Source: a virus (taxonomy: Duplodnaviria; Heunggongvirae; Uroviricota; Caudoviricetes). From it: 6,379 nucleotides of DNA. The stretch is taken from IMG/VR virus record IMGVR_UViG_2541047166_000019; one strand, written 5' to 3'. Each line of letters begins with the position of its first letter. Within the stretch, counting starts at the first letter, position 1. This document shows, piece after piece, positions 4,272 through 5,448 of this stretch. The notes beneath the pieces are model-generated. The model was not told the DNA's origin and did no database searches. It worked only from the letters and a program-made list of their open reading frames with translations. Position numbers and translations under genes: made by a program.

Positions 4272-4497
4272 CGCGAGTGCGTGTAACTTTTGATGTCATT
4301 CCCGTAGAAACACCGGACAAATTTTCGCTGACAGGTCATGCAGAAGGTATAAATCTGCAGATTATGGACAATTACGGATATCCGGCAAGAGCCGGAAAAA
4401 GCATGCCGCCTCTAATTCTCAGTGGAAGATGGACTTGATTATACTCATTGCATTGTCAGAAATAGTTATCCATTAAAGGCTGGCTATTCCAAACAGG

Positions 4498-4525
4498 ATG
4501 TTGATTACAAAAATGTAATCAACAT
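4498..4525. promoter_or_regulatory. 28-bp inverted repeat (12-bp arms, 4-bp AAAA centre), candidate operator for the downstream moron gene
   Basis: ATGTTGATTACA-AAAA-TGTAATCAACAT, with perfect arms. It lies just upstream of -10-like hexamers TATACT (4534..4539) and TATAAT (4552..4557) that have no good -35, as expected if a bound regulator occupies the -35 position. About 165 nt upstream of the ATG at 4690. Confidence 0.4.
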
Positions 4526-4689
4526 GTAAGGTTTATACTCTTCAATATGCGTATAATTTTCCTTATTTTGTTGACTTTAAATAACAAGCTATGCACGAGG
4601 TAAAGTCGGATAAGTTTATCTGGATGTAATATATATTATTTGTAGTGTTTATAACTTTATTTCATGATAACCAATAAAAGGAGTTTTTT

Positions 4690-5448
4690 ATGAGGAACAT
4701 AATGGCAGGTTTTTTAATATTCCTGTCTTCTGCTGCTTATGCTGATATCAATCTGTATGGTCCTGGTGGCCCGCATACAGCCTTGCTTGATGCAGCCAAA
4801 CTTTATGCCGAAAAAACAGGTATTATAGTGAACGTTCATTACGGCCCACAGAACAAATGGAATGAAGATGCCAAAAAAAATGCAGATATCTTGTTTGGCG
4901 CATCAGAACAATCTGCTCTGGCTATCATTCGGGACCATAAAGACAGCTTCAGTGAAAAAGATATTCAGCCTCTTTATCTGCGAAAAAGTATTTTACTGGT
5001 AAAGAAAGGTAATCCTAAAAATATCCGGAGTATTGACGACCTGACCAGACCTGGGATTGGCGTAATTGTTAATGATGGTGGTGGTACCAGTAATACATCA
5101 GGCACTGGCGTCTGGGAAGATATTGCCGGACGTAAAGGGAATATAGAAACTGTCGCCGCAATCCGAAAAAATATTATTTTATATGCGCCCAATAGCGGAA
5201 CTGCACGTAAGGCTCTTGAGAATCAGCCTGGAGCAGATGTCTGGATAACCTGGGCTGACTGGGCAGCCAGTAATCCAGAAATTGGTGATGTCGTGGAAAT
5301 AGCGCCAGACTACGTGATATGGCGTGATATGAACATTACAGTACGTCAGGATGCAAATGATGAAACCCGTCGATTTGCAGAATGGCTACAAACCGATGAA
5401 GCGGCGCCTGCATTCAAAAAATATGGCTGGACCAGGAAAGGCACTTGA
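4690..5448 (+). CDS. Secreted periplasmic solute-binding protein, ModA-like (molybdate/tungstate/sulfate-type PBP fold), 252 aa, orphan
   Basis: RBS GGAG (4680..4683) 6 nt before ATG 4690. N-terminal signal peptide MRNIMAGFLIFLSSAAYA with an AYA-type cleavage site. The mature protein shows the ModA-type pattern (INLYGPGG...IVNVHYGPQNKW...ADILFGASEQ...) and a C-terminus FAEWLQTDEAAPAFKKYGWT resembling the E. coli ModA C-terminus. The gene and its upstream region are visibly more AT-rich than the flanking phage genes. No permease or ATPase gene is adjacent. Confidence 0.85.
   Translation: MRNIMAGFLIFLSSAAYADINLYGPGGPHTALLDAAKLYAEKTGIIVNVHYGPQNKWNEDAKKNADILFGASEQSALAIIRDHKDSFSEKDIQPLYLRKSILLVKKGNPKNIRSIDDLTRPGIGVIVNDGGGTSNTSGTGVWEDIAGRKGNIETVAAIRKNIILYAPNSGTARKALENQPGADVWITWADWAASNPEIGDVVEIAPDYVIWRDMNITVRQDANDETRRFAEWLQTDEAAPAFKKYGWTRKGT

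Follow-up and report, generated by a model that had tools for sequence, protein, structure and literature searches.

Three members of the AcfC/PEB3/Paa family of binding proteins have been studied, and three different roles were assigned to them. PEB3 of Campylobacter jejuni was described as a binding and transport protein for compounds like 3-phosphoglycerate and is required for the colonisation of chicks. AcfC of Vibrio cholerae, in the paper devoted to it, was periplasmic; it affected chemotaxis toward mucin and the distribution of the bacteria in the intestine, and it did not contribute to the adhesion to Caco-2 or HT-29MTX cells; the His-tagged protein bound heparin, chondroitin sulfate and mucin in an enzyme-linked immunosorbent assay (ELISA). 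For Paa of Escherichia coli, also called AdfO, papers describe a mutant with reduced adherence to HeLa cells and implicate the protein in attaching-effacing lesions. Here we analysed a window of 6,379 nucleotides, the whole stretch of one strand taken from a tailed virus (Caudoviricetes; IMG/VR record IMGVR_UViG_2541047166_000019). In this window an original prediction, made from the letters alone, had singled out positions 4276-5448 as an AT-rich prophage moron with a lone, secreted, ModA-like solute-binding protein. We found that the gene in question is almost certainly paa, and we compared its product, neighbourhood and relatives with the systems above.

Over 4276-5448 the DNA showed 100% identity with the gene that RefSeq lists as "paa: AcfC family adhesin Paa" (WP_001449026.1) in serotypes O157:H7, O26, O111 and O103, and the segment was found by megablast in 623 of 5,426 complete E. 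coli genomes. The corresponding protein cluster (P0001), also 100% identical, bore the name "AcfC family adhesin Paa", and deposited phage records use "Paa/adherence factor AdfO". Judged by these matches, there is hardly any doubt that the orphan binding-protein gene is paa, synonym adfO and z2053 in strain EDL933, the E. coli member of the AcfC/PEB3/Paa family. Because the match to a named gene is complete, the identity was already known; this is a rediscovery, with nothing new in the identity itself. The picture of an uncharacterised moron thus has to be abandoned, the gene being a PCR-typed marker with published mutant adherence phenotypes. The setting agrees as well. Reviews place adfO (z2053) and the adjoining hok-type gene ckf (z2054) on O-island 57 (OI-57) of prophage CP-933O, inserted in ompW; the window carries the same gene between the same neighbours (replication genes on the 5' side, the hok gene 'ckf' on the 3' side) in the same type of ompW-integrating prophage. 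The gene is a routine target of the polymerase chain reaction (PCR) when pig and cattle E. coli are typed, it serves as a marker for Shiga-toxin-producing (STEC), enteropathogenic (EPEC) and enterotoxigenic (ETEC) strains, and it is counted among the virulence factors of OI-57. Transcription of paa in EDL933 rises in bovine rumen and rectum contents, so the expression in lysogens that had been proposed as a check is already documented in the literature.

Sequence, fold and homology show the product to be a soluble, two-lobed class II binding protein of ~26 kDa with a canonical Sec signal, by which it is predicted to be exported. Its N-terminus (MRNIMAGFLIFLSSAAYA/DINLYG, the slash marking the predicted cleavage site) combines a basic n-region, a hydrophobic core and an A-Y-A cleavage motif with zero cysteines, and the lack of cysteine in the signal region speaks against a lipoprotein. 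In the alignment with PEB3, the first residue of the crystallised constructs falls on Paa D19, and in the AlphaFold model low confidence and disorder were confined to residues 1-20. Pfam SBP_bac_11 matched residues 20-247 (E=5.5e-34), while phmmer aligned residues 11-248 over the full length with PEB3 (E=1.2e-81) and AcfC (E=3.5e-81), to each of which Paa is ~52% identical. The AlphaFold2 model, based on an alignment of 17 homologues, had a mean predicted local distance difference test (pLDDT) score of 89.9. Its best Foldseek match was AcfC (PDB 4JB7; template modelling score (TM) 0.90/0.97, root mean square deviation 1.0 Å), and PEB3 structures followed with TM 0.88-0.89 normalised by the query and 0.95-0.97 by the target (3FJ7, 0.89/0.97). 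The signal peptide and the type II periplasmic binding-protein pattern read from the letters were therefore supported, and the binding-protein fold appeared on structure prediction, superposing on AcfC and PEB3 at TM 0.88-0.97.

The likeness to ModA proved to be one of fold class only. ModA proteins came next in Foldseek, at TM ~0.72 and 16% identity, and ModA and Sbp, both binding proteins of ATP-binding cassette (ABC) transporters, are the closest folds beyond PEB3 and AcfC. ModA and Sbp-CysP share the class II fold with Paa and belong to its Pfam family (SBP_bac_11) or at least to its clan, but differ from it at this level of identity and structural similarity, and neither modBC nor cysTWA lies beside paa. 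The NCBIfam ModA model TIGR01256 scored 18.3 bits, below its cutoff of 62.5; the other ModA models scored 11.7-17.7 bits against cutoffs of 253-470, and the sulfate/thiosulfate (Sbp/CysP) models 22.6 against 288, 21.5 against 155.5 and 19 against 308 bits, so that none was reached. Therefore, "ModA-like" is true for the fold and false for the family. Molybdate binding by Paa is unlikely, as had been suspected: besides the low TIGR01256 score, the nearest structures, by their PDB titles, hold phospholactate or D-aspartate.

The loop S134-D144 (SNTSGTGVWED) was invariant in the 17 homologues, which range from 52% to 92% identity, and it is identical in PEB3. In our alignment, Paa T136/S137 correspond to PEB3 T138/S139, which reportedly form the ligand site (Min et al. 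2009), and PEB3 K135 is replaced by Paa T133. According to the PDB entry titles, PEB3 was crystallised with L-phospholactate and AcfC (4JB7) with D-aspartate. In the AcfC paper, by contrast with the D-aspartic acid of the 4JB7 title, sulfate is proposed as the ligand on the strength of the ELISA with sulfated glycans, and the evidence on the physiological ligand of the family thus looks divided. PEB3 (PDB 2HXW, 3FJ7, 3FJG, 3FIR) differs from Paa in being an N-glycoprotein: its DFNVS sequon, presumably the glycosylation site, aligns with DSFSE in Paa, which has no asparagine there. The gene itself is intact and under purifying selection, with ratios of nonsynonymous to synonymous substitution rates (dN/dS) of 0.04-0.13 between the prophage copy and those of plasmids, E. 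albertii, Edwardsiella and Enterobacter.

No permease or ATPase ORF was found in the 6,379-nt window, as originally predicted; its other open reading frames (ORFs) encode a cI-like repressor, Cro, a YdaT-family protein, a DnaT/O-like initiator, a lambda-P-like protein, a DUF1627 protein and Hok. The gene from 4690 to 5448 is thus a lone gene for a binding protein with predicted export, and it has no transporter genes as neighbours. Considering that homologues might always belong to complete ABC operons, one genome per species was taken, and ORFs in the resulting 80 loci were searched with ABC ATPase and permease sequences. An ABC ATPase-like or permease-like ORF occurred within 6 kb in 16 of 80 loci and directly adjacent in 2; in the other 78 species loci an adjacent ABC gene was missing. 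Homologues are lone genes in Edwardsiella, Enterobacter bugandensis, E. albertii, Aeromonas, Francisella and Campylobacter, that of E. albertii lying inside the aga phosphotransferase (PTS) locus, and most of them occupy non-phage chromosomal contexts across many phyla. The AcfC/PEB3/Paa family as a whole is orphan. PEB3 is also a lone gene, but a chromosomal core gene and not phage cargo. AcfC, on the other hand, is likewise encoded on a mobile pathogenicity element and tied to intestinal colonisation, but acfC is co-transcribed with a chemoreceptor gene, a neighbour that paa does not have. A more distant, marine clade (44-49% identity; Endozoicomonas, Vibrio and Citrobacter) was the only one with recurrent neighbours when adjacent ORFs were clustered: in its loci (L060, L065, L068, L076, L085, L092 and others of our set) a gene for a Cys-rich, repeat-containing, lipoprotein-like product follows 20-160 nt downstream, succeeded in several of them by a pair of extracytoplasmic function (ECF) sigma and anti-sigma genes; this clade may represent a distinct functional module.

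Two couplings suggested by individual loci were rejected as general features. The V. cholerae gene acfB, which encodes a dCache chemoreceptor, forms an operon with acfC, which comes next after a gap of 5 nt (8 nt separate the stop codon of acfB from the start of acfC), but a chemoreceptor gene lay within 6 kb in just 2 of the 80 loci, one of them V. cholerae, and so the acfB-acfC arrangement is not general. The idea of coupling to fimbrial or pilus operons came from the fimbrial remnant upstream of paa (see below), from the toxin-coregulated pilus (TCP) island of Vibrio and from FaeA and a TcfC-type usher in one Aeromonas island; it was dropped as a general feature because a PapD-like chaperone was near 1 of 80 loci, and no fimbrial remnant occurred upstream of the other family loci searched (L001-L094). 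The Aeromonas island (L010, 6001-12762) holds a 57%-identical Paa homologue together with AlpA, DsbA, a FaeA-like regulator and the TcfC-type usher, and the sister contig L011 has an additional H-NS-like ORF. After V. cholerae TCP and the E. coli remnant, it adds a third instance in which a family member keeps company with pilus genes.

Based on these observations, we tentatively favour, as slightly less than an even call, the reading that Paa binds an anionic gut metabolite in the periplasm and acts via an unlinked host membrane partner, with the adherence phenotype being indirect. Paa would be made with a Sec signal peptide and then released as a soluble binding protein, acting in the periplasm and perhaps to some extent on the cell surface or outside the cell. 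The interdomain cleft with its invariant SNTSGTG loop would bind a small anionic ligand of the kind bound by relatives, for which phosphorylated C3 acids, carboxylates and, reportedly, sulfated structures are candidates. Liganded Paa would then act through a host-encoded transporter or sensory receptor, and improved gut colonisation and adherence would be the outcome. On this reading, the published 'adhesin' phenotype would more probably arise indirectly than from Paa itself binding a receptor.

Several points weigh against this reading. It leans on homologues that disagree (phosphates for PEB3, sulfated glycans in ELISA and D-aspartate in the crystal for AcfC). Action via a membrane partner is drawn from the general behaviour of binding proteins, and clustering of all ORFs within 3.5 kb of the 80 homologues revealed no partner gene shared across the Paa/PEB3/AcfC clade and hence no conserved neighbour to fill that place. 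Both the literature and RefSeq name Paa an adhesin. Moreover, a consensus promoter scan gave no full sigma-70 match in the leader before the gene (4530-4689).

The importer and chemotaxis versions are sub-cases of the binder model, and the first is the rival that survives best, although we regard it as rather unlikely when taken alone. Paa would here be the binding component of a nutrient importer, feeding a phosphorylated or carboxylated metabolite (e.g., 3-phosphoglycerate) to a transporter, of the ABC or another type, whose genes lie at a different site in the E. coli chromosome, which would give the lysogen a metabolic edge in the gut. The SBP_bac_11 match, the nearness of the fold to ModA and Sbp and the description of PEB3 as a transporter component needed for chick colonisation are all consistent with it, but a cognate permease or ATPase gene is adjacent neither in the window nor in 78 of the 80 species. 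Since paa moves among prophages, IncF plasmids and unrelated chromosomal sites, the transporter partner would also have to exist in all of those hosts.

It is improbable, to a slightly greater degree, that Paa is a true surface adhesin that binds an epithelial or mucus component (e.g., sulfated glycans) for early attachment before attaching-effacing lesions form. The database name, the adherence and lesion phenotypes and the ELISA binding of AcfC speak for such a function. Nevertheless, Paa has a compact soluble fold, in which neither sequence, Pfam nor model revealed a lipobox, beta-barrel, autotransporter or fimbrial assembly element, and its strongest conservation is found in a buried small-ligand loop rather than in a surface patch. 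AcfC, a periplasmic protein in its host, took no part in adhesion to the cell lines mentioned, and a review on Campylobacter doubts the 'adhesin' status of the PEB proteins. About as improbable as the adhesin is a chemotaxis or signalling co-receptor, with liganded Paa docking on a chemoreceptor or sensor kinase and steering the cell toward mucus. The acfB-acfC operon, the altered mucin chemotaxis and intestinal distribution of the acfC mutant and the induction of the EDL933 gene alongside chemotaxis genes in bovine gut contents argue for it; the scarcity of chemoreceptor genes near family members (2 of 80 species loci) argues against it.

A benefit to the phage, through superinfection exclusion, defence or the sequestering of a ligand that competing phages need, is very improbable. 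Its sole support is the position of paa as prophage cargo next to hok/sok, whereas the gene belongs to a PHROG family without known function, the same cassette occurs on ETEC virulence plasmids, most homologues are in non-phage chromosomal contexts, and the published phenotypes concern host colonisation. A phage-defence role was rejected, as PADLOC gave no match at E<=0.01, and the superinfection exclusion once proposed for this gene found no support. Finally, the view of paa as what remains of an ABC transporter operon in decay is scarcely credible and was rejected: a lone binding-protein gene beside a pseudogene might suggest it, but the ORF is intact, 100% conserved in hundreds of genomes and under the purifying selection given above, an adjacent ABC ATPase gene was found in 2 of 80 loci only in a family that is orphan almost everywhere, and the neighbouring pseudogene is fimbrial, not of transporter origin.

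Table 1. Positions of paa and of the elements around it in the 6,379-nt window
Feature	Positions	Strand	Basis and remarks
pixH/papH-like minor fimbrial subunit pseudogene, 5'-truncated, frameshifted	4024..4529	+	Similarity to pixH in DNA and tblastn comparisons
Perfect 28-bp palindrome, 12-nt arms, AAAA loop	4498..4525	.	Inverted-repeat search, shuffles, folding
AT-rich leader	4530..4689	+	Kept between prophage and plasmid paa copies
Shine-Dalgarno AAGGAG	4678..4683	+	6 nt before ATG 4690; invariant in three aligned copies
paa/adfO coding sequence	4690..5448	+	252 aa, AcfC/PEB3/Paa family solute-binding protein; ORF, Pfam, 100% RefSeq identity, structure model
Sec (type I) signal peptide, residues 1-18, predicted cleavage AYA/D	4690..4743	+	Sequence, PEB3 construct start, pLDDT
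SNTSGTGVWED loop, residues 134-144	5089..5121	+	Invariant in 17 diverse homologues
Terminator-like hairpin CGTCCTTCAGGACG and T-run	5455..5478	+	7 nt past stop codon; conserved in plasmid copies
Second hairpin ATGCCGC-GCCA-GCGGCAT	5484..5501	+	Conserved in plasmid copies

With regard to its setting, paa is lysogenic-conversion cargo in a lambdoid prophage of the CP-933O/OI-57 type that integrates at ompW. GC content was 26% in the leader, 44% in paa and ~50% in the prophage backbone. The cargo, at ~4000-5600, consists of a dead pixH-like remnant, the AT-rich leader, paa and the two 3' hairpins (table 1). On its left, related prophages match the window to ~3800 and a small backbone ORF runs on to ~3998; on its right, relatives without paa resume at 5595-5617. 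The description of an AT-rich prophage moron between the replication module and hok was thus correct, in view of the GC dip, the variable slot and the gene's own terminator-like hairpin. A cassette of ~1 kb (leader, paa and two 3' hairpins) is common to prophages and plasmids. Copies resembling paa on IncF plasmids were 86-89% identical, with homology to the window stopping at ~5516, and on one of these plasmids the cassette adjoins the STa enterotoxin gene. Overall, paa is mobile among prophages, plasmids and chromosomal islands. A cargo hot spot extends from the DUF1627 gene to hok (~3800-5617): in a related prophage from sequence type 131 (ST131; L004, 1957-3222), a DUF977 gene and the gene for epoxyqueuosine reductase QueH replace the pixH remnant and paa.

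Upstream of the leader, we found a remnant that changes how the originally delimited range, 4276-5448, should be understood. That range does contain the AT-rich leader before paa, but its part 4276-4529 coincides with the 3' half of a pixH/papH-like pseudogene that is frameshifted. In RefSeq, 3996-4529 bears the label 'fimbrial protein, frameshifted; internal stop', and from 4024 to ~4488 the DNA was 85% identical to intact pixH-type fimbrial genes. The conceptual translation was 68% identical to PixH of E. coli B7A in tblastn, and Pfam gave no match for it. Compared with intact pixH, the first ~30 codons are gone, deletions of 10 nt and 5 nt have occurred, and there are internal stops. Plasmid paa-like copies retain just the last ~10 codons of the pixH-like gene, which suggests a past pickup in which paa was once acquired together with part of a Pix-type fimbrial operon.

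The AT-rich upstream region with a 28-bp inverted repeat and a good ribosome-binding site was accurately described. The repeat (ATGTTGATTACA-AAAA-TGTAATCAACAT, 4498-4525) is real: perfect 12-nt arms arose in 0 of 100 shuffles of the window that kept local composition, and as RNA the palindrome folds at -15.1 kcal/mol (z=-3.9). It is, however, a junction with the fimbrial pseudogene, whose last codons it spans, and not a family-conserved upstream feature of paa itself. Homology to pixH fades at ~4488-4512, exactly where the paa-like copies of IncF plasmids begin to align; therefore, the palindrome sits where the pixH remnant gives way to the paa cassette. Arms of 10 nt survive in pSTEC388_3, and in pCFS3246-1 half of the palindrome has degenerated. 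Because 27 other family members lack it upstream and this one plasmid lineage has lost half of it, a family-wide operator was rejected. The palindrome may serve as an operator here, it may be a hairpin that came with the fimbrial operon and stabilises or attenuates the mRNA, or it may be the scar of a recombination. We found no discussion of the pixH remnant and palindrome at the cassette boundary in the searchable literature.

Within the leader, an invariant TATAAT at 4552-4557 is a candidate -10 element. The Rfam search at gathering thresholds returned sok as its sole match and no known RNA element in the leader. A second in-frame ATG is missing from the plasmid copies, and for this reason ATG 4690, judged by comparison of the copies, is the likely start codon of paa.

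Other features of the prophage were also recorded. A complete hok/sok-type locus, the 'ckf' of the OI-57 literature, extends over 5637-6025: sok was matched at 5637-5786 (103.9 bits), a mok-like ORF begins at 5727, hokD occupies 5784-5939, and a strong terminator follows at 6008-6025. Within the DnaT/O-like replication gene, iteron-like direct repeats at 1854-2050 (core ACCCAAA, units of 14 nt and 24 nt) look like the prophage replication origin. The DUF1627 gene (ATG 3097) has a TAG in frame as its codon 18 (3147-3149), because of which RefSeq starts the gene at 3150; the same TAG is present in O157:H7 PV15-279, whereas the ompW prophage PPompW_132418 has GAG there. Up to 6035 the window was otherwise 100% identical to the prophage of PV15-279, except that the IS1203 insertion in the O-like gene of that strain is absent here. 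At 6036-6379 the two depart from each other, with 85.7% identity after 6035 and the match displaced by ~380 bp.

In summary, the gene carried by this prophage is a colonisation-factor gene of Shiga-toxin-producing and pig-pathogenic E. coli, and its 'adhesin' label fits poorly with a soluble, small-ligand-binding fold. The survey, in which the family is almost never beside a transporter or chemoreceptor gene, sharpens the mechanistic question without answering it. For the family as a whole we put forward, with less assurance than for Paa itself and as a possibility we would doubt more than trust, that Paa and its relatives are not adhesins. They would instead be widespread, obligately orphan periplasmic binders whose conserved anion pocket reports a host or gut metabolite to a chromosomally encoded membrane partner, and phages and plasmids may spread paa because that partner is universal in enterobacteria.

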